Shown: one piece after another, positions 39,361 through 55,696 of the stretch
How the letters are laid out: each line of letters starts with the position of its first letter
Position numbering within the stretch: the stretch's first letter is position 1
NCBI GenBank assembly: GCA_017503005.1
Contig: JAFVTW010000022.1
Coordinates: 46,949-110,948 of the forward strand
DNA length: 64,000 nucleotides
Source of the DNA: Clostridia bacterium
Lineage (GTDB): Bacteria; Bacillota; Clostridia; Christensenellales; UBA1242
Direction: 5' to 3'
Translations under genes and position numbers: made by a program
The notes under the pieces: model-generated
Told to the model about the DNA's origin: nothing
What the model saw: the letters and a program-made list of their open reading frames with translations, nothing else
Databases searched by the model: none

Positions 39361-39410
39361 AAAAAACAAAAGAACTAATCCGTGTTAAGATTAGTTCTTG
39401 CCTGGCGGAG
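39361..39410 (-). repeat. tRNA 3'-end remnant 1 plus terminator hairpin (putative outer att site)
   Basis: Minus strand reads CTCCGCCA-GGC-hairpin (39370-39399)-TTGTTTTTT. Confidence 0.5.
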
Positions 39411-39579
39411 TGTTTGTAACATAAAACGAATTAAATTATAAATTTGTGGCATAAGGTATATTGACAAAATAAAACTCATATTAAACTAACAAAAACTATA
39501 AAATATAAGGTTGTAGAGCAATTTTGCTTTTCAACCTTTTGTTGTTGATTTTGAAAAAAATTAATGAGTATGATATTAT

Positions 39580-40149
39580 ATGAGTACATTTGAAAATTTT
39601 GAAATGGTGGATAATCAAATTGTAAATAATAAATGGATTGAATGGAATCACTTTGGAATACCTAATGAAGCTGGGTTTTTAAGAGAAACAATTAGAATTT
39701 TAATGCTTGTTTTGGGGCACTGTTTGATTTGCACAAAATTAGATGGTTGTTATTTTGTAGAAAGAAAAATGCCAGAACAACCACAACACGAAAGATGTGA
39801 TTGTACCAAATTGAATAAGTCACAAACCCAGGTTAAAGATGTCTCAAATTCAGAATGCGATATTAGAAAATTTACTGATTATATATTTAGAGGTACAGGT
39901 GGTAAAAAAGACCTTTTTGAATCGTGGGGTTATACATTAAAAGATTCACAAATATTGCAAAAAGAGTTTGAAAAACAAGCAAGAGAACAATATATAAAAG
40001 GTAATTACGAATTAAAAGGTTTAGATTATAATGGACAACGAATAGCAATTCCCATAAATCTAAAAGGAAATATATTTTATAGTGGGTGGATGGTATATCC
40101 TAACGGAAAACTGAAAAATACTACCCCATTTGGAGGTTGGGTGAAATGA
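39580..40149 (+). CDS. MuF-type zinc-motif fragment fused to a DUF6883-like C-terminal domain (putative toxin module)
   Basis: HCLICTKLDGCYF...PEQPQHERCDC resembles the Phage_Mu_F CxxC..LDG...PP.H..C.C block. C-terminal KFTDYIF...GGKKDLFESWGY...GQRIAIPI...W resembles DUF6883. Confidence 0.45.
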   Translation: MSTFENFEMVDNQIVNNKWIEWNHFGIPNEAGFLRETIRILMLVLGHCLICTKLDGCYFVERKMPEQPQHERCDCTKLNKSQTQVKDVSNSECDIRKFTDYIFRGTGGKKDLFESWGYTLKDSQILQKEFEKQAREQYIKGNYELKGLDYNGQRIAIPINLKGNIFYSGWMVYPNGKLKNTTPFGGWVK

Positions 40150-40643
40150 AAAAATATGATATAGTAAAATTATCAAATTTAATAGAAGAGTATAAACAAA
40201 ACAATTTATATCTAAATGCACAAGGAATTGTTTTAGAATGTAACAATGAAAAATCAAAAGTATTATTTTTAAATGAATATAATCAAGGAGATTATGCTTA
40301 TTTAGAAGTTAGAAATAATGATGTTGAAATAATTTCTAACGATACAGCTTTATCTTTTATGAATTATATAAAAGATAATCTTAAAGATTTTAATCCAAAA
40401 GAAAAAGGATTTAAACAGAAAGAATTTAATGCATATGAAAAAGTTGAATTATTAATTGAAGATGATAAGTATTCTAAACTTGGAGTTCACAAAGGAGACA
40501 AAGGTGTAATTATGGAAGATTATGCTGTAAAAGATTATGTTTTGGTCGATTTTGGTAGATTGGATGAAGATAATAAATATTTCGGAGATTGTATATCTGT
40601 TAAATTAAAAGATTTAAAAATATTGGAAGAAAATAGGGACTAG
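40146..40643 (+). CDS. protein with two DUF4926-like repeats (putative cognate antitoxin/immunity)
   Basis: ATGA start/stop overlap with the upstream gene. Two segments YDIVKL...GIVLE and EKVELL...GDKGVIMEDY..VLVDF. Confidence 0.4.
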   Translation: MKKYDIVKLSNLIEEYKQNNLYLNAQGIVLECNNEKSKVLFLNEYNQGDYAYLEVRNNDVEIISNDTALSFMNYIKDNLKDFNPKEKGFKQKEFNAYEKVELLIEDDKYSKLGVHKGDKGVIMEDYAVKDYVLVDFGRLDEDNKYFGDCISVKLKDLKILEENRD

Positions 40644-40665
40644 ATTTCTAGTCCCTATTTTTTTG

Positions 40666-40727
40666 TACAAAAAATCCGAACTTATTGTTCGGATTAGGTT
40701 TCTATGGCGGGGTGAAGAACTCTCAAC
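40666..40727 (-). repeat. tRNA 3'-end remnant 2 plus terminator hairpin
   Basis: Minus strand reads ...GTTGAGAGTTCTTCACCCCGCCA-TAGAAACCT-hairpin (40673-40695)-TTTTGT. About 23 nt resemble a degenerate acceptor/T-arm. Confidence 0.45.
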
Positions 40728-40791
40728 ATTGCGAAATGGGGCAAAATTGTGGCAAAAACACATCAGAACCTCTTGAAACACATCAAAATAG

Positions 40792-41082
40792 TACAATTTT
40801 GACTCTAACACTACAAAAGACCAATCGGTTCCAGAGAAGACTGAATATGATGATTACATAGTCAAACAAGCTGGGATTATCTACAAAAATCAAAAGGTCA
40901 GCCCCGAAGGAATCAACCTGCGCTACGATGCACTAAAACGAAAAGATATGTTCAAAGAAATCACCGACATCAACTTCAATACCTTCGTAGCTTATCACCA
41001 CCTCATCGCCATAGCAATCACCTTCGAAAACGACCACGGCAAATCGGTTGACCACTACCTTAAAAAGTATGGGTTGTTTTAA
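40792..41082 (+). pseudogene. startless 3' gene fragment, copy 1 (ends ...AYHHLIAIAITFENDHGKSVDHYLKKYGLF)
   Basis: 96 open codons after an in-frame TAG. The only in-frame ATG/GTG/TTG is a late internal ATG that would give just 44 aa. The last ~64 codons are repeated at 41919-42110. Confidence 0.5.
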
Positions 41083-41085
41083 GAA
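40891..41085 (+). repeat. direct repeat copy 1 (~195 bp)
   Basis: Hand alignment to 41919-42113 gives about 26 substitutions, no indels and a 38-nt perfect block. Confidence 0.85.
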
Positions 41086-41175
41086 TATGCTAAAAAAGTT
41101 AGTCAAGTATAGACTTTGAGATTGAAGTGTGGTAAAATTGCTCTACAGATAAATTTGCTATGGGATTTATTTGTT

Positions 41176-41226
41176 CCCCGCTTGATATGAAAATATCAAG
41201 CCCCTCCAATTCAAACTTTAAGGAGG
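41176..41226 (+). promoter_or_regulatory. 5' UTR hairpin and possible anti-SD element of the nucleotidyltransferase gene
   Basis: 9-bp stem gcttgatat/atatcaagc with GAAA loop (41180-41201). CCTCC (41203-41207) is complementary to SD GGAGG (41222-41226). Confidence 0.4.
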
Positions 41227-41232
41227 TAAAAT

Positions 41233-41871
41233 ATGTTTGAATATGTTCCGAAAAGTGAATATCAACCCATACGAAAATATGTTGAATCAGTAATAAACAA
41301 AGTTCAAGATGATTTGCGTAAAAATGGTATAGTTACTTTTCAATATCATCTTATTGGAAGTGCCGGTAAAAGGCATCTTATAACTAGAGAAATTAATGGT
41401 AATAGGGGATTTGATTTTGATTATAACTTTGTGATACAAAAATATAATCCAGATTATCAAAAACCTAAGGAATTAAAAAAGGTATTTATTAACGAATTTA
41501 ATAAATACTTTGGCTCTAATTATGAGTGTGCCGAGGATTCTACTTCAGTGTTTACAATTAAAAACATAGATAAAACAAAATCAAAGATAATACATAGCTT
41601 TGATTTTGCTATTGTTGACTATGTTTATGACTCTGAAGATAGATTGCGACAAAGATACATAAGGTTTGATAAAAATACTAAAGGATATTCTTGGGCTTTT
41701 AGAAAACTTCATAATGACCATAGCGATTATGAAGAACTTATAAAAGAAGAAGGTTTATGGAATAAGTTGAGAGATTTATATCTTGAAAACAAAAACAAAG
41801 AACCACATAAAAAATCAAGAATAGTTTATTATCAAACAATAGATACAATTTACAAAAGATACTTCCAATAA
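41233..41871 (+). CDS. minimal Pol-beta-fold nucleotidyltransferase (SMODS/CD-NTase-like, 212 aa)
   Basis: hhGSxxK...(15 aa)...FDFDYNF (GS...DxD) followed by HSFDFAIVD (third acidic residue). Confidence 0.55.
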   Translation: MFEYVPKSEYQPIRKYVESVINKVQDDLRKNGIVTFQYHLIGSAGKRHLITREINGNRGFDFDYNFVIQKYNPDYQKPKELKKVFINEFNKYFGSNYECAEDSTSVFTIKNIDKTKSKIIHSFDFAIVDYVYDSEDRLRQRYIRFDKNTKGYSWAFRKLHNDHSDYEELIKEEGLWNKLRDLYLENKNKEPHKKSRIVYYQTIDTIYKRYFQ

Positions 41872-41875
41872 AAAG

Positions 41876-41905
41876 CATCCCTACTTCGGTAGGGGTGTTT
41901 TTTAT
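41876..41905 (+). terminator. intrinsic terminator after the nucleotidyltransferase gene
   Basis: 9-bp stem around a TTCG loop, followed by TTTTTT. Confidence 0.7.
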
Positions 41906-41915
41906 ATTAATATAA

Positions 41916-42110
41916 AACCAAAAAGTCGGCCCCGAAGAAATCAACCTGCATTATGACGCCCTAAAACACAAAGATATGTTTAAAGAAATCACTGATATAA
42001 AACTCAACACCTTTGTAGCTTATCGCCATCTCATCGCCATAGCCATCACCTTCGAAAACGACCACGGCAAATCGGTTGACCATTACTTGAAAAAGCATGG
42101 GTTATTTTAA
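41916..42110 (+). pseudogene. startless 3' gene fragment, copy 2
   Basis: 64 codons open after an in-frame TAA. Homologous to the end of 40792-41082. Confidence 0.5.
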
Positions 42111-42113
42111 GAA
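41919..42113 (+). repeat. direct repeat copy 2 (~195 bp)
   Basis: See copy 1. Confidence 0.85.
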
Positions 42114-42556
42114 AATAATTAATTATTAGTAATAATAAGTTGACAAAACAACTTTATAGTATTATCATGATTGTGTTAGCACTTGAAGGGCAAGACTGCT
42201 AATAAATATTATAATAAAAGAGGTTATATCTATCGAGTATTAATTTGATTGATTTCAATATAAAAAAATAACATCGAGACGAATATAATCTCGATGTTAT
42301 TTTATTTACAACTTGAGAATGAATTCTTTCTAGTTTGGTCGCTTGTAAGAATTCAACAAAGGAGTTGATAATGATTATTCTGTGAAATCACTATACAAGT
42401 ATATTACACAAATTTGTGATCATTGTCAACCGGAAACTTAAAAGAAATATACAAATATGTAAAAACTAATTTGCAGATATAGTATATTTTGAGACTAGCT
42501 GACAGTGATTTTTTTATTCTCTAAGTTGTTTCAACCTAATTTAGGAGGTGCTAAAA

Positions 42557-42778
42557 ATGGCAGTACATGTAACGCCACATAAAAATGGTTGGCAAGTAAA
42601 AACTGGTGGAGCAACGAAAGCTCATAGAGTTGTTGATACGCAAAAACAAGCGATAGATATAGCAAAGTCGGTTGCGAAAAATCAACAAACTGACACAAAA
42701 ATACATGGTCGAGATGGTCGAATTCGTGCTGGAAACAGCTATGGCAATGACCCTCATCCACCAAAAGACAAGAAATAA
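42557..42778 (+). CDS. DUF2188-like small protein
   Basis: VTPHKNGWQVKTGGATKA....TQKQAIDIAK..A.....D..IHGRDGRIR pattern. ATG follows AGGAGG. Confidence 0.65.
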   Translation: MAVHVTPHKNGWQVKTGGATKAHRVVDTQKQAIDIAKSVAKNQQTDTKIHGRDGRIRAGNSYGNDPHPPKDKK

Positions 42779-42799
42779 GAAACAAGAAGGAGAATAATT

Positions 42800-44092
42800 A
42801 TGTTAAAATTATCAGGAGATAAGTTAAAAAGAGAAGGTTTAATAACAGATTTGTTTAATTTGTTTGAAAACTTTGGTAATCAAAATGGCCGCGGATTGAC
42901 TATGGTGATTAATGGTAAATATGGTAGCGGAAAATCAACACTATTAAATTTTATCGAAGAAAAAAATGAGCAAGAAGAAAAGTTTAATATTCTTAAATAT
43001 AATGCGTGGGAAAACAATTTTTTTGAAAATCCACTCATACCTATATTGCATACAATTAGCAAATTAAAAACAAATGGTGCAAAAATAAAAGATGGTGCAA
43101 AAAACATATTAAAAAATATTCCTAAAGTGTTCTTTGCCACATTAGCAAATGCACATAGCTTAGATTTGCAAGCATTATGTTCAAATGAAAACATATTTGA
43201 AGAGTATGATTCTTATAGTAATGCAATGTCAGAATTTAAAAACATCCTAAAAGATCATTGTACTATAAAGAAAACGATTTTGTTTGTGGATGAATTGGAT
43301 AGGTGTTTGCCAGAATATCAAATTAAAGTGTTGGAAAGCATTTATCACTTATTGGATATTCCTGATTTGATAGTTGTGATTGCTTTAGACAAAACACAAT
43401 TAGAAAATGCTATTAAATCAAAATTTGGTGAAGATCAAAACACTTATGGTTATTTAGCAAAATTTATTCAATATGAGATAGATTTACCAGAAGGCGATAC
43501 TTATGAATATATAAAGCAGCTAATGACATTTTCAGTACAAAAGGAATATGAATATGAAACGAAAAGCTTGATTTCTGATATGTTCAAAGTTAATAATGTT
43601 TCGATAAGAGAATGTCAGTTAATGATAAACGAGATTAATATGATCTGTAATGAATGTGGGAAAGATGGTAAACAACTGATATGGTTATATTGGTATCCAA
43701 TTCTTATAGCATTGTTAACAATGATGAAGAAACTAGCGCCTAATGTCTTTAAAAAATATTTCGGAGTTATGAAAGAACGTGTTAATAATTATTCAAACAC
43801 TTTAACTTCTCTTAATTCGACAGATTATGGTGAGTTTTTAAAGGATATTGAAAATACTGCTATAAAACAAATATTAAAGGTTTTATTAAACGATAATTAT
43901 GGGCAATGTTTTATGTTGCACTTCATTAACACTTTTTATCCTATTAGAAAAATAGCACTTGAAAGCTTATCTTCTTACATTGGTAGAGATGGTGATACTA
44001 TTCAGTCTATCACAAACAGTTATGGAGATAAAATGGCATATTATCCAGAGATGATAAATGGTGTAATTGAAAAATTAAAAATATTAAAATAA
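42800..44092 (+). CDS. KAP-family P-loop NTPase
   Basis: Walker A INGKYGSGKST, Walker B LFVDELDRC, and VIALD block typical of KAP NTPases. Confidence 0.75.
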   Translation: MLKLSGDKLKREGLITDLFNLFENFGNQNGRGLTMVINGKYGSGKSTLLNFIEEKNEQEEKFNILKYNAWENNFFENPLIPILHTISKLKTNGAKIKDGAKNILKNIPKVFFATLANAHSLDLQALCSNENIFEEYDSYSNAMSEFKNILKDHCTIKKTILFVDELDRCLPEYQIKVLESIYHLLDIPDLIVVIALDKTQLENAIKSKFGEDQNTYGYLAKFIQYEIDLPEGDTYEYIKQLMTFSVQKEYEYETKSLISDMFKVNNVSIRECQLMINEINMICNECGKDGKQLIWLYWYPILIALLTMMKKLAPNVFKKYFGVMKERVNNYSNTLTSLNSTDYGEFLKDIENTAIKQILKVLLNDNYGQCFMLHFINTFYPIRKIALESLSSYIGRDGDTIQSITNSYGDKMAYYPEMINGVIEKLKILK

Positions 44093-44113
44093 GGTTTATT
44101 GCATTTTTTAATC

Positions 44114-44347
44114 TTAAAGAGATAAAAACTTAACAACAAACTCAATAATTTGGTCAACTTCGATAGAGTGAAGTTGACCTTTTTCTATGTCTAAATAAAG
44201 ATATTCTTTCCATTTGTCTTTTGAAAAGTCCTTTAGGAATTTGTCTTCCATTTCTACAACTTTGTTAAGTTGAAGTTTATACTCTGCAGTCATTTTCTCT
44301 TCATAATATTTTTCTCTAATCATTTCTGCTAAAATTTTGTTATCCAT
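44114..44347 (-). CDS. hypothetical small protein (77 aa)
   Basis: ATG after GAGGTG. Convergent with the KAP gene. Confidence 0.4.
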   Translation of the reverse strand: MDNKILAEMIREKYYEEKMTAEYKLQLNKVVEMEDKFLKDFSKDKWKEYLYLDIEKGQLHSIEVDQIIEFVVKFLSL

Positions 44348-44478
44348 AAACACCTCACATTAATAGTTGGTGTGTGTTTTAACTCTTTAAAATGACAATT
44401 ACAAGTACTTTCTAAAAATAAATTGTATTTTCGTACAAAATCAGAAAAAGTATGTTATAATATCGTTGAGGTAAACTT

Positions 44479-45543
44479 ATGATTAAAAAAATAGAGAACT
44501 TTGTTGATAAATTTAATAGTTATTTTGTTTTACCATTATTGGTAGTATTTTTATTATCATATTTAAGCGAAGAGTATTCAACATCAAGGGTTGGTGTTGC
44601 TATTAATATTGTATTTAGTATATTATTTGTTGCTTATTTAGTTTTAATAATTTATAAGATTTGCAAGAAGACTATTAAAACTCAATCATTAATATGGGTA
44701 TTAGTAACGTCGTTAGTTTTAATTGTTTTATCTTTTGTTATGAGTTTTGGTGATAATGCATCAATTTCAGATATATTTTTTATTGCTGGTGTTATATTTT
44801 TTGAATCCTATTCTTTGTTTATTGTTATACAATGTTGTTTTTCTGAAAAAACAATGATTACAAAGGCTATAATCTTTTCAATGATTTTTATAATATTAGG
44901 TTATTATACGATTTATTTGGCTGCATATGAAAAATCAGATAATTCAATGTTTAATGCGCTGATAAGTGTTTTTTCAGCGATTATTGGCGGAGGAATAACA
45001 CTTATTGGTGTTGCGTGGACTATAAGAAATGAGGCAAAAGAGCGAAAAGAGGATCAAATTGAATATAACAATGTGAAAAAATTGGAATATAAACCTTACT
45101 TCAGTGCAAAAAGAATTGTAGATACTGGTAGAAAAAGACATCATATTATAGATTTAAATAATCCTAAATATGGATATATACTTGATTATTTCTTTGTAAA
45201 TAAAATTAAAGAAGATGAAGAAATTTTTATTATGGAACCAGTTGTTTGCATAAATACAGATCATTCAAATTTTATGGTAAAAAGAGTTGATTTTTTAGAT
45301 GATTCAATTTATTTGGATGAACTAATTAATAGAAATGAAAACTTTGCATTCTTTAATGAAAAAAGATTTTTTATCAAAAACAAAGAAGAACAATTAAAAT
45401 TTAGGGTGTATATTGAAGATTTTATAGGAAATGAATATAAACTTGATTTTTTATTTGAATATTTAAGAAGATCTGAAGATGGACCTAAAGGACCAATAAA
45501 ATATAAACTTGCGGTATACAAAAGAATGCAAGAAGTTAAATAA
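44479..45543 (+). CDS. membrane protein: N-terminal ~6 TM plus ~160-aa soluble C-terminal domain
   Basis: Hydrophobic N-terminal half and charged C-terminal half. No motif recognised. Confidence 0.55.
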   Translation: MIKKIENFVDKFNSYFVLPLLVVFLLSYLSEEYSTSRVGVAINIVFSILFVAYLVLIIYKICKKTIKTQSLIWVLVTSLVLIVLSFVMSFGDNASISDIFFIAGVIFFESYSLFIVIQCCFSEKTMITKAIIFSMIFIILGYYTIYLAAYEKSDNSMFNALISVFSAIIGGGITLIGVAWTIRNEAKERKEDQIEYNNVKKLEYKPYFSAKRIVDTGRKRHHIIDLNNPKYGYILDYFFVNKIKEDEEIFIMEPVVCINTDHSNFMVKRVDFLDDSIYLDELINRNENFAFFNEKRFFIKNKEEQLKFRVYIEDFIGNEYKLDFLFEYLRRSEDGPKGPIKYKLAVYKRMQEVK

Positions 45544-45754
45544 AACACAATGTTAACAAATTTAAAATTTGTTTGTTTTTATTTGAATTTTCAATACAAA
45601 TTTGGAAAATGTGTGGTATAATGAAAAATGCTAGGAAAGAGTAGATAAAATACTTTTACCTGCATTTAATATGATGAAGAATTCATAGATTCTTTGAGAG
45701 AAAAAACAGGTTGACAAAATTGTTTCATATAGTATCTATAGAATTGGAGGAATA

Positions 45755-46837
45755 ATGGATAAAAAGACAATTAGGGTGTTTGAAGGATTTGCGGGATATG
45801 GCGGAGGTAGCTTTGCTTTAAGAAAATTAAAGAAAAAATATCCAGCTTTTAATTATGAAGTAGTAGCTTATTCCGAAATTGATAAATATGCATCAGAGTT
45901 ATTTGATGCAAACCATAGAGATAAGAATGGTAATCCAATTAAGAATTACAATGATATAACATTGGCAAATCCAGAGGATGAAGATTTTCCTGATTTTGAT
46001 TTATTTACAGGGGGATTCCCTTGTCAACCATTCTCAACGGCTGGTATGCAAAAAGGTGTTGATGATCCATATGGAAGAGGAACCTTATTTGAACACATAA
46101 TGAGAATATGTAAAGTAAAAAAGCCAAAATATATTTTACTTGAAAATGTAAAAGGCATATTATCTAAAAAGTTTGATGAAACTAGAAAACAAATGAATGA
46201 TATGCTTAGAGAAATGGGGTATGTGTCAGACAAGAATGACCCTAATGAACAACCATTAGCAATGGCAGTATTAAATAGTAAGGATTATGGTGTACCTCAA
46301 AATAGAGAAAGGGTATGGATGTTTGCTAGATTAGGAGGTTTGCCAAAAGATTTTACAATGGTTCCTCCACAACAGAAAAACGATTTAAGATTAGGTGACT
46401 TTCTAGATCCTGTTGATAGAGTTCCAAAAAACTTATATTTATCAGATAAACAAATTGCTCATTTAAAAGAAAAACATCATATTGAGAGCTTTATTGTAGA
46501 TAAACCATTATGCTTTGATGTTTATAATAAGAAAATTAAAATAGATGGTTATTCTATAACATTAACAATGCCTGAACACAATAGCGTAAGGGTTATTGAG
46601 GCTCATGAAGATAAAGAAGTTGTTAGAAAAATGTCTGTAACTGAACAATTTAGATTAATGGGCTTAGAGGGATTAAAAGACGCAGATAGAGAAGTTGATA
46701 TTGATTTCATAAATCACTCTTATACTCAATTATCTAAAAGAGCGGGTAATGGTTGGGATGTAAATTTGGTGACAATATTGTTAGAGCATATATTCTCGCA
46801 ATTAAAAGATGTTGACTCAGATATGTTTGATATATAA
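45755..46837 (+). CDS. DNA (cytosine-5)-methyltransferase
   Basis: Motif I FEGFAGYGG, IV GGFPCQPFS, VI ENVKG, VIII QNRERV, X GNGW. Confidence 0.9.
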   Translation: MDKKTIRVFEGFAGYGGGSFALRKLKKKYPAFNYEVVAYSEIDKYASELFDANHRDKNGNPIKNYNDITLANPEDEDFPDFDLFTGGFPCQPFSTAGMQKGVDDPYGRGTLFEHIMRICKVKKPKYILLENVKGILSKKFDETRKQMNDMLREMGYVSDKNDPNEQPLAMAVLNSKDYGVPQNRERVWMFARLGGLPKDFTMVPPQQKNDLRLGDFLDPVDRVPKNLYLSDKQIAHLKEKHHIESFIVDKPLCFDVYNKKIKIDGYSITLTMPEHNSVRVIEAHEDKEVVRKMSVTEQFRLMGLEGLKDADREVDIDFINHSYTQLSKRAGNGWDVNLVTILLEHIFSQLKDVDSDMFDI

Positions 46838-46846
46838 GGAGAAAAT

Positions 46847-47929
46847 ATGAAAACAATTAGATTTAGAATAGATGAAAAATCTTTGTTTTATGGTATTTAT
46901 AATGATTTTGAAAGAGGTCAAACAGCTACAGTGCACACCCCTATTAATCAAGCAAAAGATCCTAAAGATTGGCATCAAGATATAATAGAGTTAACAAAAC
47001 ACAATATAGAATTAAAGAAAGTGCCAGAAATGCTTGAAAAAATGTGTCTGAGAAATACAACATCTCAGGCGAAAAGCAAATTAAATCAGTTTTTTGAATT
47101 TAAAAATTTATTATTGGATGGAGAGCCTTTAGAGTGTTTTTGTTCTTTTGGAATGTATATAAAAGAAGAAGTTGATAAAAACATAGTTTCAAGAAGAGGA
47201 ATAGTGTCTCCCAATACACATTTTGGAAGACAAAAATTGCATTATCCAATTTCTTTAAATTATCAAATTGATGGAATGAAAATTGATAACAAAAGAGTAC
47301 TTCAAACTATTTTGGATAAAAATGGCGGTTTTGCTTTTGTTGTTAGAGAATTTGAATATTGTATAGAAAAAGACACTCTTAACTTTATTACTTCAATGGT
47401 TGGACCTCAAAATATACCATTATCTAATGTTTTTAGAAGAGCAAAGGGTGTTGGTAAAAAGTTACTATTAGGTGAAATTGATGTAAACGACTTTGAAATC
47501 TTGAATGAAGTATATACTATTAACAAGAATTTAAAAGACAAAGATATACAATCAGTATTTGAACTTGCAAATAAGACCAAGGTAGAAAATGGAAAACTTG
47601 GTGAAGAAATTATATTAGAAATGTTAAAGAAGAATCCAAAAATTACAGATATATATCATACAAGTAAAGTTTACCCAACATCACCTTATGATATCGAATT
47701 TTATGAAAATGGTGTGAAAAAATATATTGAAGTAAAATCTACTCAAACAAGCAAGAAAGTGTTTAATATGTCGATTGGTGAACTTAAATTTATGGACCAA
47801 TACAGCAAAGATTATAAGTTGTATTTAGTTACAAATGTAAGAGATTCCAGACCAGGAATTACTTCGTTTGTTTCTGAAGAAATTAAAAAGTTGCGTTATG
47901 AACATCCAACTACAAGGTTTTATGCATAG
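46847..47929 (+). CDS. putative restriction endonuclease with DUF3883-like PD-(D/E)xK C-terminal domain
   Basis: GKLGEEIILEML...YDIEF....KKYIEVKST...FNMSIGELKF...YKLYLV. Starts 9 nt after the MTase gene. Confidence 0.55.
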   Translation: MKTIRFRIDEKSLFYGIYNDFERGQTATVHTPINQAKDPKDWHQDIIELTKHNIELKKVPEMLEKMCLRNTTSQAKSKLNQFFEFKNLLLDGEPLECFCSFGMYIKEEVDKNIVSRRGIVSPNTHFGRQKLHYPISLNYQIDGMKIDNKRVLQTILDKNGGFAFVVREFEYCIEKDTLNFITSMVGPQNIPLSNVFRRAKGVGKKLLLGEIDVNDFEILNEVYTINKNLKDKDIQSVFELANKTKVENGKLGEEIILEMLKKNPKITDIYHTSKVYPTSPYDIEFYENGVKKYIEVKSTQTSKKVFNMSIGELKFMDQYSKDYKLYLVTNVRDSRPGITSFVSEEIKKLRYEHPTTRFYA

Positions 47930-47947
47930 AGAGTAAAGGAGAGTAAT

Positions 47948-48766
47948 ATGCCAGAAGCAAATAGTAGAAGAAGAGCTATGACATCTGATCAAGCAAGACA
48001 AGTTAGAGCTCAGGGACATTTAGATGCGAAGGAGTTTGCTCGCATTATAGGTGTTGGGGATGACTATCAAAATGGAGCAACGGATAAAAAAGATGTAGTT
48101 GATCAAAATGGAGACACTCATTCTTTAAAAAGTGGAGAAACTAGGTGGCAAATATTTTTATATTCTGTTACGAGGTTTAAAGAAGATGTTATTTATAAAG
48201 TGATGGGTGGTGTAGGAGATGGAGTAGGTAATTTAATCTTAGAGTGTTTAAATTGCTTTCCTGATTCATTTGATGAATATTTAGAAAATAAAAACAAGTA
48301 TAAAATCTTATTAAAACCAAAGATGATATCATTATGTGGCAAATTGCAAGATAAAGATGTTTTTGCTGCGTTTTTGGTTAAGTCAATTTTTAATTGTGGA
48401 GAAGTAAATTACCTTACAATAAAGAATGATGAGAAATTCCATGTTTTTCTTTCTAATGATGTTGTGGAATGCATGGTCGAAAATGTTGAAAGACAAATGT
48501 CTAAATCGAGAGGAAGAGATCAAATGCATTATCAGAAGGTTGTGTTAGTTCATGACGATGTTAATGTGGGTACAATTGAAATTAGACACGATAGTACTTC
48601 TCATTATAAACAAGCTGTTTTTGCTTTGAATAAGGCAGATATATTTCGTATGTTAACTTCAAAAATAACAAACAAACAGGAGTGGGGAGATAAAGTTGTT
48701 GTTTATTGTAAAGCAATTAATAAGTTTAAAAAGAAGCATAAGGAATATCTACAAAGCAATCAATAA
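47948..48766 (+). CDS. hypothetical protein, possible second nuclease of the R-M locus
   Basis: Same strand, 18-nt gap. KKDVVDQNGDTHSLKSG could be a D...SxK variant nuclease motif, which is speculative. Confidence 0.35.
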   Translation: MPEANSRRRAMTSDQARQVRAQGHLDAKEFARIIGVGDDYQNGATDKKDVVDQNGDTHSLKSGETRWQIFLYSVTRFKEDVIYKVMGGVGDGVGNLILECLNCFPDSFDEYLENKNKYKILLKPKMISLCGKLQDKDVFAAFLVKSIFNCGEVNYLTIKNDEKFHVFLSNDVVECMVENVERQMSKSRGRDQMHYQKVVLVHDDVNVGTIEIRHDSTSHYKQAVFALNKADIFRMLTSKITNKQEWGDKVVVYCKAINKFKKKHKEYLQSNQ

Positions 48767-49038
48767 TACCCATTGCCTCTCTTTTTGAGATAAAAGAAAA
48801 GATTGAAAGGACAAAAACGGGTTTCAGTTTTTTTGTGAATAAAAAGGTTGTCATTATGTGTTGTATTAAATGGAAGTGTAAGATATAGTGAGTTTACAAT
48901 TAAATATTTAGAAATAGAGAACCACGAGTTTCAGCCAGAGATAGAGATATCTTTGTTGGATTTCGTGGTTTTTGTTTTTAATATTTGTATTAAAATGTTA
49001 TCATTTTATTAACATATTATAAACAAGGGAAGAGTTGT

Positions 49039-50052
49039 ATGGAAAAAATACAATATGCATTAAAAGATGATAAATTGTGTTGCATTGATGAGGTGGAATC
49101 AGGATTAAAGTGTGGCTGCGTATGTCCTGCTTGTGGTGGAGTGATGGTTGCTCGTAAGGGGGACATTAAAATTCATCATTTTGCGCATAAATCAAAAGTT
49201 GTGTGTGAGCATGGTTTGGAGACTTCGTTGCACTTGTTGGCAAAACAAATTTTGAAAGACGTTAAAACATTTATGTTGCCGTCTATAAAGTTTAGAGATC
49301 ACGGATGTGTTGTGATTGAAGAAAAACGCAGCATAAAAATTGTAAATGTTGAATTAGAAAAATATATAAATGATATCAAGCCTGATATATTAATGGTTGA
49401 TGAAGATGGAAACAAATATTGTGTTGAAATTTATGTAACGCATGCTATTGATAATGAAAAATTGGAAAAAATAATAAAACTTAAATTGAATACAATTCAA
49501 ATAAATTTAAGTGATTTTGCGAACAAGCAAATAGGATATGATTTTTTGAGAGAAATACTTATTTGTGAAACAAATAAAAAAGAGTGGAAGTATCACTCTA
49601 AAATAGAAGAAAAAAAGAACGAACTTGCAGTTCCTGTTATTAAGTTGAAAAACTGTGTGTTCCAACAAAAGAGGATGTTGGCAGATTTTATTTATTGTTT
49701 AACCCATTGTAAATATGGAGTGGGGATGTCGAAAGATGATAGTGAGGTGTATTGTACGCGAGCAAATGAGGTGTTAGCTGGTTATAAGATTTCTGACAAG
49801 CCCAAATATCATAATGATCCCGAGTGTGGGTGTAAATTAGAAGTTGTTCGAGAAGGGGATAGATTTTATTATAAGTGCACAGGCTATCCTGTTTGCGATT
49901 ATAAAGAAAATATAGAAAGTGTATACCAAACATTGGCGACGGGGGAAACTTGTCCAATATGTAAATCTAAAATGGTTTTGAGAACAGGTAAAAATGGTAA
50001 ATTTTTAGGATGTGAAAGATGGCCGCAATGTAGTTATACAAAAAACTTGTAA
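49039..50052 (+). CDS. CoiA-like nuclease fused to two topoisomerase-type zinc ribbons
   Basis: N-terminal C.CPACGG...HHFAH...C...ETSLHL..K, core KPDIL...VEIYVTH, C-terminal CPICKSKMVLRTGKNGKFLGCERWPQC plus a second C4 unit. Confidence 0.6.
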   Translation: MEKIQYALKDDKLCCIDEVESGLKCGCVCPACGGVMVARKGDIKIHHFAHKSKVVCEHGLETSLHLLAKQILKDVKTFMLPSIKFRDHGCVVIEEKRSIKIVNVELEKYINDIKPDILMVDEDGNKYCVEIYVTHAIDNEKLEKIIKLKLNTIQINLSDFANKQIGYDFLREILICETNKKEWKYHSKIEEKKNELAVPVIKLKNCVFQQKRMLADFIYCLTHCKYGVGMSKDDSEVYCTRANEVLAGYKISDKPKYHNDPECGCKLEVVREGDRFYYKCTGYPVCDYKENIESVYQTLATGETCPICKSKMVLRTGKNGKFLGCERWPQCSYTKNL

Positions 50053-50100
50053 AATATGGGAAGATTTGCCCAATATTTTAACACTTTAAATGTGTGTAAT

Positions 50101-50146
50101 AAAAAACAACCCAACCAAACTTTGTTGGGTTGTTTTTGTGGCGGGA
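50101..50146 (-). repeat. tRNA 3'-end remnant 3 plus terminator hairpin
   Basis: Minus strand reads TCCCGCCA-CAAAA-hairpin (50106-50133)-TTTTTT. Confidence 0.4.
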
Positions 50147-50162
50147 AGACCGTTATCCAATC

Positions 50163-51230
50163 CTAACACTCAGGTTTATCTTGGTTATGGTTGGATTCGT
50201 CTTTCTCTGGTTTTATAATATCTTCAGTTTTCTCATTATTTTCGTCTTCAGTTTTAGAATCTTCTTCATTTTTAAAATATAGTAAATTTTTATATATTGT
50301 GTTATAAAATTTTGTATCAGGCAGATTTGATAGTACTGATGACATATACTTATTAAAATTTGAACTTAAGTTATATAATGATTTAATAGCTGTTGCCATT
50401 ATTTCGGTATTATAATTATAATTAATTGATGAAATCATTTTAGTAAGAGCTTTTAAATAATTGGAAGCAATTATCTCTGAATTTAATGTCGATTTTACGT
50501 CAAGAACTTGGTGTGAACTTATTGCTCTGTCTAGCTCCTTATTTGCTTTATTGAATAACTTATTTGCTTTTTTATAGTCATCATATGATATGTTGTGAAA
50601 ATGCATAACATGATTTCTATAAGTATATAATTCAACATAATAAGTATCAAATTTAAAATCTTTATATTTTGGTTTAAAACATGTTTCCCAAATAGAGTTG
50701 TTAGGAACATCTTTTAGATTTTTATGAATAAATCCATCATTTTTTAAACCTTTTATGCTTTTATATGCTTCTTCGTCTCTGAATAATAACATAAAAATAT
50801 TTGAAAGGTCAGAATATTCAAAAACTAAATCTTCTTCATATTCCTTTCTATGTAATTGTAATTTACTTTTAATGTCTTTTGTTAATGCTTCAAACCCTTT
50901 ATTTAAAATCTCTTGTGTATCACACAGTGCTATATTTAGTAGTTTTCTTAGGTTAATTTCAAATTTTTGAATAAGTGGGTATAACTTTCTTTGAAACAAT
51001 AAACTTGGTTCACACTTTAACGTTTTTATTTTTATTCCTTCCGCTTCAACTTTTGTTTTTATTTCATTGTATTCACAAAGTAAAATTATTGCATTTTTAA
51101 TACTTTCTTGTTTTGCGGTAAGTTTTAATATATAGTTTTCTTTACCATCTATTTGATAGTAATCCACATCAACGTATTTACTGGTTGGTTTAAAAGAAAG
51201 GTTTTTATCAATCAATATTTCAATTATCAT
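50163..51230 (-). CDS. HEPN-domain protein (Swt1-like HEPN), acidic C-terminal tail
   Basis: FEINLRKLL helix and Rx4H motif YRNHVMHFH. Confidence 0.5.
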   Translation of the reverse strand: MIIEILIDKNLSFKPTSKYVDVDYYQIDGKENYILKLTAKQESIKNAIILLCEYNEIKTKVEAEGIKIKTLKCEPSLLFQRKLYPLIQKFEINLRKLLNIALCDTQEILNKGFEALTKDIKSKLQLHRKEYEEDLVFEYSDLSNIFMLLFRDEEAYKSIKGLKNDGFIHKNLKDVPNNSIWETCFKPKYKDFKFDTYYVELYTYRNHVMHFHNISYDDYKKANKLFNKANKELDRAISSHQVLDVKSTLNSEIIASNYLKALTKMISSINYNYNTEIMATAIKSLYNLSSNFNKYMSSVLSNLPDTKFYNTIYKNLLYFKNEEDSKTEDENNEKTEDIIKPEKDESNHNQDKPEC

Positions 51231-51452
51231 TTGTTGCTCCTAAATTCTAATAACATTAGTATAGCATATAATCTTTATTTTTGTATATATTCCATCAAAA
51301 AAAGAAGAAGTTTTTTTAACTTCTTCTCGTGGGTTTTATTGATTGGATTGCAGATGATTGTTGACTTCATTTACTGTAAATCAAGAACCTTTCACGGCAT
51401 AAACCGCCACTAAAAAAGACTAGACCTTGTTTGATCTAGCCTAGTTATGAAT

Positions 51453-51638
51453 TTAGTTGTTTAAAGAGTTTATAAAATTAATAAGCCCTACTGGTAGAAC
51501 ATTCAATATCTCATTTTTGAATCGTTGTTGGTTTTCAGGGCTTAATTCATTTAATGCATCATATAAGTCTTTACTTGCTTTTGCGGCTTTGACTTTAAAT
51601 TGAGCATATTCTCTTTCTAAATCTTCGAAACTTTTCAT
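51453..51638 (-). CDS. hypothetical small helical protein (61 aa)
   Basis: ATG after AAGAGGA. Lies upstream of the HEPN gene on the same strand. Confidence 0.35.
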   Translation of the reverse strand: MKSFEDLEREYAQFKVKAAKASKDLYDALNELSPENQQRFKNEILNVLPVGLINFINSLNN

Positions 51639-51750
51639 AATCTATCCTCTTTTTTGTTTTGGAGAAAATACTATGTGCTTATGAAGTATTAACAACGGGT
51701 TTGGTGGCATAAAGAATATAACACTTAACTTATAAAAAGTCAATAAAAAA

Positions 51751-51791
51751 GCCTAAACCGAGATTATCGATTTAGGTTTTGATTGGCGGAG
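51751..51791 (-). repeat. tRNA 3'-end remnant 4 plus terminator hairpin
   Basis: Minus strand reads CTCCGCCA-ATCAAAA-hairpin (51751-51777)-TTTTTT. Confidence 0.45.
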
Positions 51792-51955
51792 CAAACAAAG
51801 TTCAGGTTGAACTGAAAGTAGACAATAATAAAATTGTTATAAATATACTGTAAATGAGAAAAAATCTCACAAATGTGTCATAAAGTATTGATTTTTTACG
51901 AATTTATGGTATACTAAGTGTGAAAACTTATCATAATATATAAAGGAGGTATACT

Positions 51956-53203
51956 ATGATAATACAATTTAACTTCAAAAATTTTAGATCTTTTAAGGAT
52001 AAAAATACAATAGATATGCGAGCTACAAAAATTACAGAATATAAAGACCAGATTGTAGAGGTTAATGATTTAAAGTTATTGCCAATTGCTACATTTTATG
52101 GTGCAAATGCTAGTGGTAAATCAAATGTTTATTATGCCCTTGAATTTATGAGGACGATGGTATTGAGGTCTTTTTCTTTTGGGGGTACTTCTAAAGAAAC
52201 AAGTGAAATTTTTTATGATTTTAACAATAATGTGCAATTTGCTTTTGATGACGAAGCAAATAAGGCAGATACTGAATTTGAAATTATTTTTACAACTAAG
52301 TATAACGAAAAGAGTTATGTCTTTGATTATGGTTTTTCTCTCAATCCAGATAACATAATAAAAAGTGAATGGTTAAAAACGAAAGCGCCATCATCAAAAT
52401 CATTTAAAGATATATTTGCTAGAAATGAACAAGAAATAAATTTATGTGGGCTGGCAAAAGAATATGCTAACATGATTAGATTAACGTTAGAGAAAGAAGT
52501 TTTAATATTATCATTAGGTTCAAAACTTAAAATTGAGATTTGCAAAATTGTTAGAGAGTGGTTTGAAAAAATAGAATGTTTGAATTTTTCAGGCGGTTTA
52601 AATGCTTTATTTGCTAGTGAAAGGTCTCCTAAGCAGTTTGAAAAAGAAGAAATCCAAAAAAATATTTTAGATTTTATTTCTAGTTTTGATGATTCAATCA
52701 AAGGTTTTAGAAAAATTGATGACGAAAAGAAAAAGTTTTCTAACTATCCCGTTAATGCACTGCATGATACGATTGATAATTCAGGGCAAAAAGAGTTGTC
52801 ATTAGATAATGAATCTGCAGGAACTAGAAAGATGATTAGTTTATATTCGCCAATTAAAGACGTTTTGGACAATGGCGGAGTGTTGCTTGTTGATGAATTA
52901 AATGCAAGATTGCACCCACTTTTAGTTCGAAATATTATAAGAGAATTTGCAAATAAAGGAACAAATCCACTTGGTGCACAATTACTATTTACAACACATG
53001 ATACATTTCATTTAGGAGATAATTTATTAAGAAGAGATGAAATATGGTTTGTAGAAAAAAATAAAGGAATTTCTAATCTTTATTCTCTTGCCGATTTTGA
53101 ATATAACGGAACAAAGATAAGAAAAGATGCTGATTTAGAAAAAAATTATTTGCTAGGAAAATATGGTGCGATTCCTGACTTAAAGCCATTTAATTTAAAA
53201 TAG
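51956..53203 (+). CDS. AAA/ABC-type ATPase (AAA_15/AAA_21-like), defence-associated
   Basis: FKNFRSFKD, Walker A GANASGKSN, Walker B LLVDELNARLHP, and FTTHD. Confidence 0.8.
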   Translation: MIIQFNFKNFRSFKDKNTIDMRATKITEYKDQIVEVNDLKLLPIATFYGANASGKSNVYYALEFMRTMVLRSFSFGGTSKETSEIFYDFNNNVQFAFDDEANKADTEFEIIFTTKYNEKSYVFDYGFSLNPDNIIKSEWLKTKAPSSKSFKDIFARNEQEINLCGLAKEYANMIRLTLEKEVLILSLGSKLKIEICKIVREWFEKIECLNFSGGLNALFASERSPKQFEKEEIQKNILDFISSFDDSIKGFRKIDDEKKKFSNYPVNALHDTIDNSGQKELSLDNESAGTRKMISLYSPIKDVLDNGGVLLVDELNARLHPLLVRNIIREFANKGTNPLGAQLLFTTHDTFHLGDNLLRRDEIWFVEKNKGISNLYSLADFEYNGTKIRKDADLEKNYLLGKYGAIPDLKPFNLK

Positions 53204-53214
53204 TGAGGTGAAAA

Positions 53215-53853
53215 ATGGCAAACAAAAGAGAAATCTTAGCACCTAGAAGGTCCGGATTCAAGAGTCAAAATTTACCCAGATACTTAATTGTCGTTGATAC
53301 AGAGCAAACAGAATTTAATTACTTAAACGGATTAAAAAACACAATCCCACGACATCTTGTTGATAGGGTTGATATCCAAATAAAAAATACTAGTACTGAT
53401 AATTTAGTGGAGTATTGCTTAAATATGTGCAGAAAAAATCCGAATTATGTAACTCCTTGGATTGTTTTCGATAGAGATAGAGTGGTAAATTTTGATGAAA
53501 TAATCCGTGATGCATATAGTCATAAAATTAATGTTGCATGGTCTAATCCTTGTATTGAGACTTGGTTTTTTAGTTATTATGATAAGCCACAAAATATTTC
53601 TGAGTCTACTATTTGTGTGTCAAAGTTTAAAGAAAAATTTAAACAGGAAAACGGACAAGAATATAAAAAGAATGACAAAAACATATATAGAAAGTTAAAT
53701 CAAACAGGGTCTCAAGATAAGGCAATAAAATATCATGATGTTAAATTTAGAAATTATAGACAAGATGCGACTCCTCCATCGGAGATGTTTTCTTGTTCCA
53801 CAATGTATATGTTGATTTCTGAACTACTTGAAATTATTAGTAAATTGAAATAA
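53215..53853 (+). CDS. RloB-like protein
   Basis: YLIVVDTEQTEFNYL and VFDRD...VAWSNPCIETWF match the RloB pattern (cEG..TE..YF / D.D / SNPcFE.W). Confidence 0.7.
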   Translation: MANKREILAPRRSGFKSQNLPRYLIVVDTEQTEFNYLNGLKNTIPRHLVDRVDIQIKNTSTDNLVEYCLNMCRKNPNYVTPWIVFDRDRVVNFDEIIRDAYSHKINVAWSNPCIETWFFSYYDKPQNISESTICVSKFKEKFKQENGQEYKKNDKNIYRKLNQTGSQDKAIKYHDVKFRNYRQDATPPSEMFSCSTMYMLISELLEIISKLK

Positions 53854-54298
53854 ATACATGGCAATACTTACCATTTTACAGATGGCAATTCGCATTAAAA
53901 AGTTAACTGATTTAATTCAAAATATTTTTCTTCTAATTAAAAAGGAGGTAATTATTATGGCTTATGATGTTAATAAACTTCTTGTTGTTTGCGTGTGAAT
54001 TGGGTATTGCCGGACGCGAGTCACAAGAAGTTTGCCAGAGTTAATGCTCTGGCTTTTTATTTTAGCATAATTATTTATTAAAAATAAATTATTTATTTGA
54101 GAGAAATTTATACAAAAAATAATGAAACATGTTATAATGTTGTTATGGACATTCATTTAATGAAGATATTGAGGCAAAATTAAAAGAATGCTTTGTTGAT
54201 TTTATACTTGAAGGTAATATCCTTGAAAAAATAAAAGATTCTAATATTAGAATATTAACAAATTTAGCAAATAGATTATGTGAGTAGAGGTTTTGTGA

Positions 54299-54619
54299 AT
54301 GAAAATTTATAATAAGTTAGTTAGAGATAAAATTCCAGAGATTATTGCTAGTGATAATGGTAAAACTTGTGTTACCAGAATTATGGAAGATGATGAGTAT
54401 TTAGAAACTCTTAATACAAAAATGCAAGAAGAACTTAAAGAATATTTAGAAAGTGGTGATGTTGAAGAACTAGCAGATTTGGAAGAAGTATTAAGAGCAA
54501 TTCTTGATGTTAAGAAAGTTTCTTATGAGGAATTTGAAATTATTAGAAATACAAAGGTTGAAAAACGAGGAGCTTTTAAAAAGAAAATCTTTTTAGAGAG
54601 TGTTGATGATGCAAGATAA
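54299..54619 (+). CDS. MazG-like nucleotide pyrophosphohydrolase (COG4997-type, 106 aa)
   Basis: YNKLVRDKIPEII...EEL.EYLESGDVEELADLEEVL. Confidence 0.6.
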   Translation: MKIYNKLVRDKIPEIIASDNGKTCVTRIMEDDEYLETLNTKMQEELKEYLESGDVEELADLEEVLRAILDVKKVSYEEFEIIRNTKVEKRGAFKKKIFLESVDDAR

Positions 54620-55589
54620 TTTTTATGGAAGATTTACAAAAATTATTAGAGAATGTAATTATGATAATACATATAAAATGGCTTGGGCAAAATCTTTAGT
54701 CGAAATTTGCTCTAATCAAGAATTTCTGGGAGAAAAATTAACAATTTCTTTAAAAGAAATTGCCCATAAGTTTTTAAAATATTATTGGAATCAAACTATA
54801 TTTTTTGATCTAATTCAAGGAAGCAATCCTAATAGACCTCCAATTATTTTAACATTGATTAAATCTCTTATTGAAAAATACTATATTGCAATAAACAAAA
54901 AACAGCCAGAGGTTTTCGAGAAGGTTGAAGATAGATTTGCAAACATTGGTATGCAAAATGATTTTGAAAAAACATTAATTGATATTGCTAAAATTTTAAA
55001 AAATGATGTTAGTTGGAGATTTGACAATATTGACGACAATAGCACAAAATTGTATGACTATCAACAAAAGTTAGATTTTTTGGTAATTGATAAGGATAAT
55101 GCGATAGTATTAAAAAATCATCAACAAGACTTATATGATTTAATAAATTATAGATGGAGTTTGATTTTAGAATCATTTAATAGTTCTCCTAGAATTAATA
55201 AAAAAGTGAGAATTATTGATGAAAGATGTATAAAAAGGTCTCCGTTAAATAAATTTAAAACTTATTTAGATGTTGAGAACCCTAATCATTTTTGTTTTAT
55301 TTGTGGAAAACAAACATCTTCTCGTGAATTAGCTATTGATCATGTGATACCTTGGTCTTATATGTATAGTGATGACTTGTGGAATTTAGTGTACATCTGT
55401 CAACATTGTAATTCTATTAAAAGTAATGTGATACCTTCAAAGGGTCAAATTGATAGGCTAAAAGAGCGAAATAAAAAATTGCTATTATTATTAGAACAGC
55501 AAAGTTCTCACACTAAAATGATTGAAGAATTAAAACTTGCAATAGAAAAAGATTATGTAAATAAATTTTGGACAGGCTGCAAAGGATAA
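54600..55589 (+). CDS. HNH endonuclease with ~230-aa uncharacterised N-terminal domain
   Basis: CFICG...AIDHVIPWS....DDLWNLVYICQHCNSIKSN. Overlaps the MazG-like gene by 20 nt. Confidence 0.8.
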   Translation: MLMMQDNFYGRFTKIIRECNYDNTYKMAWAKSLVEICSNQEFLGEKLTISLKEIAHKFLKYYWNQTIFFDLIQGSNPNRPPIILTLIKSLIEKYYIAINKKQPEVFEKVEDRFANIGMQNDFEKTLIDIAKILKNDVSWRFDNIDDNSTKLYDYQQKLDFLVIDKDNAIVLKNHQQDLYDLINYRWSLILESFNSSPRINKKVRIIDERCIKRSPLNKFKTYLDVENPNHFCFICGKQTSSRELAIDHVIPWSYMYSDDLWNLVYICQHCNSIKSNVIPSKGQIDRLKERNKKLLLLLEQQSSHTKMIEELKLAIEKDYVNKFWTGCKG

Positions 55590-55696
55590 AAAGACAATGC
55601 TTTTACACATTGTCTTTTATATATTTATTAATACAAATTAATGCATAATTCGAAATTGATATAAAGAAAAAACGGCTTTTTAAAGCCGTTTTTTTC

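Follow-up and report, generated by a model that had tools for sequence, protein, structure and literature searches.

Probable serial integration of anti-phage elements at the CCA end of a tRNA-Ser gene in a Christensenellales-like clostridium, with a large serine recombinase as the likely enzyme

Introduction

Islands that accumulate in tandem at tRNA genes are already known, and accretion is in itself an ordinary idea. In the Islander survey, displaced fragments of tRNA genes (tDNAs) mark the ends of islands, tyrosine integrases are stated to be the sole enzymes known to use tDNAs as targets, and four arrays of three or more islands were counted among 3919 islands (PMC4383910). The TIGER survey (Mageeney et al. 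2020) called 14 of 297 serine-integrase (S-Int) elements at tRNA or tmRNA genes, a use that 'has not been reported previously' and for which experimental proof was said to be required (PMC7192596). The subject here is a 64,000-nucleotide stretch of DNA from a Clostridia bacterium (contig JAFVTW010000022.1 of assembly GCA_017503005.1; referred to as the window and numbered from its first letter), in which an anti-phage defence island of about 16 kb (39.4-55.7 kb) is bounded by a radical-SAM/SPASM gene and a tRNA-Ser gene, with Tex beyond the tRNA. The reading favoured, at a probability of roughly 0.7, is that this island is a tandem array of at least four elements, each of which entered the final 6-8 bp of the tRNA gene (core (C/T)(C/T)CCGCCA) through site-specific recombination, with a large serine recombinase (LSR) as the likely enzyme. 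The unusual parts are the likely use of the tRNA-Ser CCA end by a serine recombinase, the 6-8-bp footprint, and the arrays of defence cassettes.

As in the tandem islands of Islander and TIGER, and in the tandem accretion of integrative and conjugative elements and cis-mobilisable elements (ICE/CIME) in Streptococcus, an intact tRNA gene stands at one end of the island and displaced 3′ ends in the same orientation lie at the older boundaries. As in Islander/TIGER-type islands, too, the element beside the tRNA would be the newest, and integrase-less members persist. Islander-type islands, however, are attributed to tyrosine integrases and have tDNA long enough to rebuild part of the tRNA, whereas here the shared sequence is CCGCCA ± 2 nt and the linked enzyme is an LSR. 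Of the features that Islander looks for, displaced 3′ fragments in the same orientation are present as four (C/T)(C/T)CCGCCA copies, shorter than standard detection would use; no integrase domain was found in the ORFs (open reading frames) of the island that were scanned, and intact relatives carry serine recombinases instead; and an empty and an occupied site are seen in a sister species (L016/L126), whereas the window's own species shows alternative occupants only (L008, L121, L124). Four tandem units are rare by Islander counts. Of the features of an S-Int element, a short shared attachment (att) core with a recombinase near one end is found in relatives (a 7-bp repeat in L126), and a Resolvase/Recombinase/Zn_ribbon_recom protein is absent from the window. 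Like the TIGER cases the present one is computational; new in it are a pair of empty and occupied sites, two isoacceptors of tRNA-Ser, LSRs of two families and arrays of several elements.

Outside the tRNA genes, the staphylococcal cassette chromosome (SCC, SCCmec) and the Enterococcus cassette chromosome are inserted by LSRs at the extreme 3′ end of a housekeeping gene, forming tandem cassettes with short direct repeats, and many SCC cassettes have no recombinase of their own. The island would resemble SCC in mechanism and architecture only, that is, in the LSR, the 3′ end of a conserved gene, the short direct repeats and the recombinase-less cassettes. SCC uses rlmH as its target, Ccr recombinases as its enzymes and carries mainly resistance cargo, whereas here the target is the tRNA-Ser CCA end, the terminator is borne by the element, the cargo is anti-phage and the host is an uncultured, gut-dwelling, Christensenellales-like bacterium. 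Integron arrays have in common with the island compact, promoter-poor cassettes that end in variable hairpins beside a short conserved core. An integron, however, has IntI, attI and the R''/R' consensus of attC, none of which is present here, where the hairpins are intrinsic terminators with T-runs, and the array is therefore not an integron.

An empty and an occupied site in a sister species

All of the evidence is computational, and the comparison sequences, given here by L numbers, are metagenome contigs. The most direct view of the insertion comes from L016, which belongs to a sister species and has tRNA-Ser(tga), and L126, whose locus is syntenic with the window (Tex, SpoU, Ham1, Macro and FolD). 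The two are 96% identical to the right of the tRNA end and, leftward of a position 4.7 kb from it, 90% identical over 209 nt; the two alignments overlap by 8 nt, TGGCGGA(A/G). The occupied site is that of L126, with a 4.7-kb insert between 7-bp direct repeats (TGGCGGA) of the tRNA end; that of L016 is empty. The sole recombinase in the insert is an LSR (P0080), 93% identical to the LSR of L105/L125, and no Phage_integrase domain was found by Pfam either in this insert or in the large open reading frames (ORFs) of the island. The pair shows that an element with an LSR as its only recombinase sits at the exact tRNA-Ser core in the sister species. The attP site reconstructed from L126 reads ATTCGTTTTACGTTACAAATGCT-CCGCCA-AGCAAAACCTAAATCGAT.

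Synteny around Tex was followed in 80 loci, the best 45 of which were scanned for tRNAs; one of these keeps tRNA-Ser(tga) beside Tex.

Organisation of the array

From the tRNA outwards the window reads tRNA, core, T5 and element D; arm, core, T4 and element C; arm, core, T3 and element B; arm, core, T2 and element A; and finally arm, core, T1 and the radical-SAM gene, where T1 to T5 are hairpins and the elements are named according to the reading favoured here. The parts are listed in that order.

55697-55784, minus strand: tRNA-Ser(UGA), intact (ARAGORN; Rfam tRNA, 56.9 bits).
55697-55704 in plus-strand positions, minus strand: last 8 nt of the tRNA-Ser gene, CTCCGCCA, the recombination core and target.
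55667-55694, minus strand: hairpin T5, the present terminator of the tRNA, from element D; the hairpins of L008 and L016 differ here.
51792-55696: element D, proximal to the tRNA, with AbiLi/AbiLii(RloB), a 106-aa gene and an HNH gene.
51792-51813, minus strand: distal arm of element D, AGCAAACAAAGTTCAGGTTGAACT, with a short palindrome.
51784-51791, minus strand: core 4, CTCCGCCA, which joins the distal arm of element D to the proximal end of element C.
51381-51783, minus strand: proximal (P') end of an LSR-type element, consisting of hairpin T4, a 61-aa gene, a terminator and an inverted CCGCCA.
51751-51777, minus strand: hairpin T4.
51453-51638: the 61-aa gene, with its terminator at 51417-51442 and the inverted CCGCCA at 51404-51409.
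Within element C: the 61-aa gene and a 355-aa gene.
50147-50175, minus strand: distal arm of element C, GAAGACCGTTATCCAATCCTAAYAC, which takes in the final codons of the 355-aa minus-strand gene and extends past them.
50139-50146, minus strand: core 3, TCCCGCCA, whose right-hand arm recurs beside three different hairpins.
About 50104-50135, minus strand: hairpin T3, proximal end of element B, which is also the terminator for flanking convergent genes, including the 355-aa gene.
40713-50138: element B, with an NTase-like (nucleotidyltransferase-like) gene, DUF2188, a KAP NTPase (nucleoside triphosphatase), a membrane protein, a C5 methylase, NOV_C, a 272-aa gene, a CoiA_N/Zn-ribbon gene and a 115-aa ORF.
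40713-41082, plus strand: distal arm of element B, a 5′ leader and a frameshifted copy of the ~115-aa ORF (ATG 40735, stop 41082).
40705-40712, minus strand: core 2, CCCCGCCA.
40673-40695, minus strand: hairpin T2, proximal end of element A.
39411-40704: element A (module A), 1.3 kb, with two genes of unknown function (189 aa and 165 aa).
39411-39431, minus strand: distal arm of the LSR-type family, TGTTTGTAACATAAAACGAAT, like the distal arms of L125/L126.
39403-39410, minus strand: core 1, CTCCGCCA, the outermost junction.
39370-39399, minus strand: hairpin T1, an orphan terminator just upstream of the radical-SAM gene, with no minus-strand gene upstream of it.

The four motifs of sites 1 to 4 and their hairpins had been picked out by a first-pass annotation made from the sequence alone, and all eight were found where it had placed them, the hairpins as minus-strand terminators. 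T1 is probably the original terminator of the tRNA; failing that, it would be the end of a still older element.

Strain junctions at the cores

The organism is an uncultured, Christensenellales-like clostridium of ruminant gut metagenomes. Contigs encoding exact copies of window proteins were compared with the window by blastn. In L008, whose core genome is 98.6% identical, the homology ends exactly at 55697, where the tRNA has its CCA end, and the terminator hairpin that follows is a different one. L124 holds module A at 100% identity, diverges exactly at 39403 and has a different hairpin to the left of that position. L121 keeps the right half of T1, module A and T2 at 100%; from 40709, within core 2, it continues instead as TGGCGAGAAGACCGTTATCCAATCCTAA..., the sequence to the right of window site 3, and then with different cargo. 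Contigs L119 and L123 start at 39403 and 39402. A 411-bp unit, 51381-51791, comprising T4, the 61-aa gene and core 4, occurs in five other contexts (L105, L111, L112, L113 and L114) at 96-98% identity, and its homology stops at 51789-51791 in L105, L111, L112 and L114, and 22 nt further in L113, which shares the distal arm of element D. The breakpoints of five independent contigs lie inside the 8-mer. Related strains whose module boundaries fall at these sites, which the first-pass annotation had proposed as a check, thus exist at core 1 (L124), core 2 (L121), core 4 (four contigs) and the tRNA end itself (L008).

In L105/L125 and L111/L114, T4 and its core lie directly 3′ of a complete tRNA-Ser(GCU) gene and form its 3′ end. 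Because the same hairpin and core end a tRNA-Ser gene there, site 4 is demonstrably a displaced tRNA-Ser end with an element-supplied terminator, now 3.9 kb from a tRNA. Across a table of 17 junctions, arms and hairpins occur in free combination around an invariant CCGCCA: T4 is joined on its left to five different partners, of which two are genuine tRNA-Ser(GCU) genes, and T2 has two arms, while the site-3 arm is paired with three hairpins (T3 in the window, T2 in L121 and a third in L111/L114 at 2153) and the site-1 arm with four. Free pairing of this kind is what site-specific recombination at the core leaves behind, and the cores are recombination junctions. The hairpins differ in sequence from junction to junction, as had been predicted for terminators derived from separate elements. 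The pair of 106-aa and HNH genes in element D recurs, at 82% identity, between two cores of the L125 array.

Arrays of cores with hairpins are not confined to the window. L125 (at 2225 and 4721) and L111/L114 (at 274, 2153 and 3000) have their own downstream of tRNA-Ser(GCU), and that of L125 also holds type I restriction-modification genes. In L087, from a more distant species, the minus strand has a tRNA-Ser end, ...CCCTCTCCGCCA, with a terminator at ~6802 and a second CCCTCTCCGCCA with a terminator at ~4457, 2.3 kb away; the second site is probably another displaced tRNA-Ser end that marks a small island.

The contexts of the CoiA-like gene are all collinear with the window and gave no independent variation on the T3 side. 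Scans of metagenome DNA for hairpin T1 gave no match, and neither did scans for the ~115-aa ORF element, a query known from a JGI (Joint Genome Institute) contig, so that the scanned collection does not contain these samples. Contig ends in Logan at 40759, 50168 and 55758 were considered as strain junctions and rejected, since assemblies broken by repeated arms or by tRNA sequence account for them better; at 50168, inside the site-3 arm, lie the breaks of contigs L154 and L155.

Large serine recombinases beside the cores

The link between the cores and serine recombinases comes from intact relatives of the elements in the window. L105/L125 have an intact LSR of 499 aa (Resolvase, Recombinase and Zn_ribbon_recom domains), convergent to the unit of T4 and the 61-aa gene, which ends 140 nt past the 51381 junction. 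The site-1 arm of the window matches the distal arm of L125 (4721) at 27 of 29 positions, core counted. The distal arm of the L126 insert (...TTCGTTTTACGTTACAAATGCT-CCGCCA; junction at 7667) is homologous to both, and the proximal hairpin of that insert is a variant of T4, while the site-4 unit is 98% identical to the proximal end of L125. Site 1 thus carries the P arm, and site 4 the P' end, of this family of LSR elements.

LSR genes are present in the homologous elements L105/L125, L126 and L129-L133. An order of core, hairpin, small gene and LSR is repeated in L125, L126, L130-L132 and the IMG/VR contig L133, and in four of these (L125, L126, L130 and L133) some 0.2-0.6 kb separate the core from the stop codon of the LSR gene. 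L130 and L133 hold tandem LSR elements: on its opposite side, the core is adjoined by an LSR of a second family (494-528 aa). In all, serine recombinases flank cores in six independent loci. Decaying LSR genes also stand beside cores: L008 keeps an N-terminal fragment, L110/L007 no more than the last codons, and L112 a C-terminal remnant of ~80 aa. The enzyme is most likely an LSR of ~499 aa, a role in catalysis that is predicted from these genes and their positions. The window itself has lost the LSR gene, on the left side of 51381.

Between the LSR stop codon and the point that matches 51381, the LSR-bearing relatives have a conserved, relatively G+C-rich non-coding stretch of ~140 nt (in the region 6186-6420 of L105), which could be a non-coding RNA, a regulatory site or a second recombination site.

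The core and hairpin against chance expectation

The window has 31.7% G+C and a single tRNA gene. TGGCGGRR occurs in it eight times where shuffling predicts 0.85, and none of 100 shuffles reached eight; all the copies are on the plus strand and within 39.4-55.7 kb. Four copies are intergenic (39403, 40705, 50139 and 51784), one is the 3′ end of tRNA-Ser(tga) (55697) and three lie in coding sequences (44985, 45799 and 52873). The last three, as the first-pass annotation had cautioned, are glycine codons; they encode Gly-Gly, one of them in the FxGxGG motif of the C5 methylase, and have no hairpin.

The hairpins have G+C-rich stems followed by T-runs and score as intrinsic terminators on the minus strand. 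A permissive scan of the window returned 133 terminator-like hairpins, of which exactly five have CCGCCA at most 16 nt upstream, namely the four sites and the real tRNA. An empirical background of 1.30 Mb, taken from 80 loci of related species, contained 542 CCGCCA, nine of them with a terminator-like hairpin within 12 nt downstream. Of the nine, three belong to tRNA-Ser, as gene ends or an obvious remnant. This background predicts ~0.06 such sites by chance in a 12.4-kb stretch where four are observed. The association of CCGCCA with a hairpin is confirmed as real and non-random, and the worry that the combination might be common by chance in such DNA, which the shuffling was proposed to address, can be set aside.

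At every junction, the fresh ones of L126 and L125 included, identity to the tRNA is limited to 6-8 nt, and no tRNA-like signal was found at the sites by Rfam at E<=10. Since these fresh junctions are equally short, the core was this short from the outset, and decay does not explain its length. Two earlier proposals are affected. Site 2 had been described as extending over ~23 nt as a 'degenerate acceptor/T-arm', which did not hold up: it has no Rfam tRNA match at the same threshold, and the sequence is the leader of the multicopy ~115-aa ORF. Each element had also been said to bring a replacement tRNA 3′ end and terminator; the terminator stands, whereas the 3′ end does not, only 6-8 nt being tRNA-derived and the right flanks being element arms.

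GGCATAA was tried as a motif common to the sites and dropped, its frequency being that of chance, and a search for longer direct repeats between modules returned only a pair of 203-nt ORF fragments.

Cargo and internal mosaicism

The defence genes of the island comprise AbiLi/AbiLii (AAA_21 and RloB), a KAP P-loop NTPase (PADLOC PDC-S20), and a C5 methylase with NOV_C and two further genes. The NTase-like gene at 41233-41871 has a weak PADLOC match (3.7e-6) to cyclases of CBASS, the cyclic-oligonucleotide-based anti-phage signalling system.

The ~115-aa ORF of element B (MGQNCGKNT...HYLKKYGLF), which shifts from frame 0 to +2 within 40735-41082, belongs to a family with no Pfam or PHROG match and 75 homologues at 72-95% identity. 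Because these close homologues lie mostly on very short contigs, under 2 kb, the ORF is suggested to be a multicopy element. In L099 its leader adjoins a core with a different hairpin, and in L100 a longer form adjoins the core. A 3′ fragment of 203 nt is duplicated around the NTase-like gene (at 40886 and at 41914-42116) with 86% identity. In the window and in L096, L099, L100 and L101, the ORF always opens a run of defence-like genes.

The first-pass annotation had divided the island into modules of 39.4-40.7, 40.7-50.1, 50.1-51.8 and 51.8-55.7 kb. The boundaries do fall at the cores, but the modules are themselves further mosaic. Besides the 203-nt duplicate, 51381 is a junction at which the 61-aa unit meets one or the other of two left flanks, and 48765-48872 is a relic, 88% identical to sequence in the tRNA-proximal region of L008 (within 284-480), where the counterpart precedes the N-terminal fragment of a serine recombinase pseudogene (...LNDGVRVLSARENISDDASGILMESVLEGMAEY, ending in a stop).

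Two features lie apart from the island. A full-length ROOL RNA, unrelated to it, occupies 12956-13505 on the plus strand (Rfam RF03087, 317 bits, E 4e-72, model 1-574). At ~58.2-58.4 kb, after Tex, strains vary (L006 versus L007/L008): a 163-aa gene is additionally present in some contigs, and L006 aligns with the window by blastn in separate parts that overlap at 58295-58349, which suggests a second small variable spot or a repeat.

Proposed mechanism and alternative explanations

In the proposed mechanism, crossover would occur at the extreme 3′ end of the gene, and the incoming element would have no need to rebuild the body of the tRNA. It would place its own terminator hairpin (the P' end) behind the CCA end, and its other end (the P arm) would be joined, through the core, to whatever had previously followed the tRNA. 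Each new insertion would displace the earlier core and hairpin outwards, and the hairpin would differ at every junction because the element, and not the tRNA, supplies the terminator. The order in which the elements arrived would follow from their positions. Recombinase genes would since have been lost, leaving the array as a fossil of integrase-less anti-phage cassettes. Serial accretion with older remnants pushed outwards, as the first-pass annotation had envisaged, is supported by the strain breaks, the tRNA-Ser(GCU) counterpart of site 4, the background test and the L016/L126 pair.

Several observations weigh against this account. No recombinase gene or pseudogene was found by Pfam among the large ORFs at 36-58 kb, nor any LSR in the whole 64-kb window by tblastn with an LSR query. 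The role of an LSR in the window is therefore argued from the homology of the site-1 and site-4 arms to those of intact elements in other genomes. For the arms of sites 2, 3 and 4, which are of other families, the analysis turned up no cognate recombinase. No empty-site strain of the window's own species was found that would show T1 to be the native terminator. Some metagenome contig ends reflect repeats and not strain differences. Serine integrases, moreover, do not as a rule accept a hybrid attL-type site as the partner of attP, and repeated use of the tRNA would need tolerance of a changed B' half-site; SCC elements do tolerate such a change.

The absence of a recombinase from the island would also be expected if the integrase-less units were bona fide mini-elements, mobilised singly in trans, after the manner of SCC or integrons, by a serine recombinase whose gene lies elsewhere in the genome or on an adjacent element. 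Module A fits such a unit well, being only 1.3 kb long with two genes, bounded by cores and furnished with an LSR-type distal arm, and its 100% identity in three neighbourhoods (the window, L121 and L124) points to very recent gain or loss exactly at the cores in a lineage whose island is recombinase-less; the unit of 106-aa and HNH genes, too, is seen again in the L125 array. The same pattern would nevertheless result from whole elements integrating or excising beside A, or from core-by-core deletions, and remnants of LSR genes show that decay does occur. A free or circular form of attP was not found in scans of viral contigs, and the lack of an LSR in the window counts here as well. Mobilisation in trans is judged unlikely. 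A low probability is likewise given to the wider proposal of a working cassette system, as opposed to wreckage, in which an arm, one to a few defence genes and a hairpin are moved at the tRNA-Ser CCA end by serine recombinases acting in trans. If it were true, gut Christensenellales would have an SCC-like or integron-like, rapidly shuffling anti-phage array on a tRNA gene.

Tyrosine integrases that leave displaced 3′ tDNA fragments account for most known tRNA-targeting islands (PMC4383910), and the array could in principle be a classical one of that kind, its integrases and longer tRNA fragments having decayed. This is largely refuted and very improbable: neither the large ORFs of the island nor the L126 insert have a Phage_integrase domain, tRNA identity ends after 6-8 nt even where junctions are fresh, the sites give no tRNA-like signal at the Rfam threshold used, and it is serine recombinases that stand beside cores in six independent loci. 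The idea that the motifs are chance or functional sequences, such as terminator or antisense-RNA units, within islands swapped by homologous recombination in the flanking core genes, draws on the three further 8-mers in coding sequences and on the orphan minus-strand terminators, which could end antisense transcripts. It is refuted, and scarcely credible, given the four sites observed against ~0.06 expected, the five independent contigs that break inside the 8-mer, and the identical unit that abuts real tRNA-Ser genes. Integration of successive elements at the tRNA-Ser core, most likely by LSRs, is preferred over these alternatives.

Implications

The use of a tRNA gene by serine recombinases is barely documented, and this locus and its relatives add new cases, in which two tRNA-Ser isoacceptors would serve as targets and two LSR families, to judge by the core they flank, would use only the last 6-8 bp. 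The recombinases and the reconstructed att sites are concrete candidates for experiment, and possibly tools. Island finders based on tRNA fragments would miss such arrays, and a defence island free of any recombinase may still be read as a dated stack of insertions.

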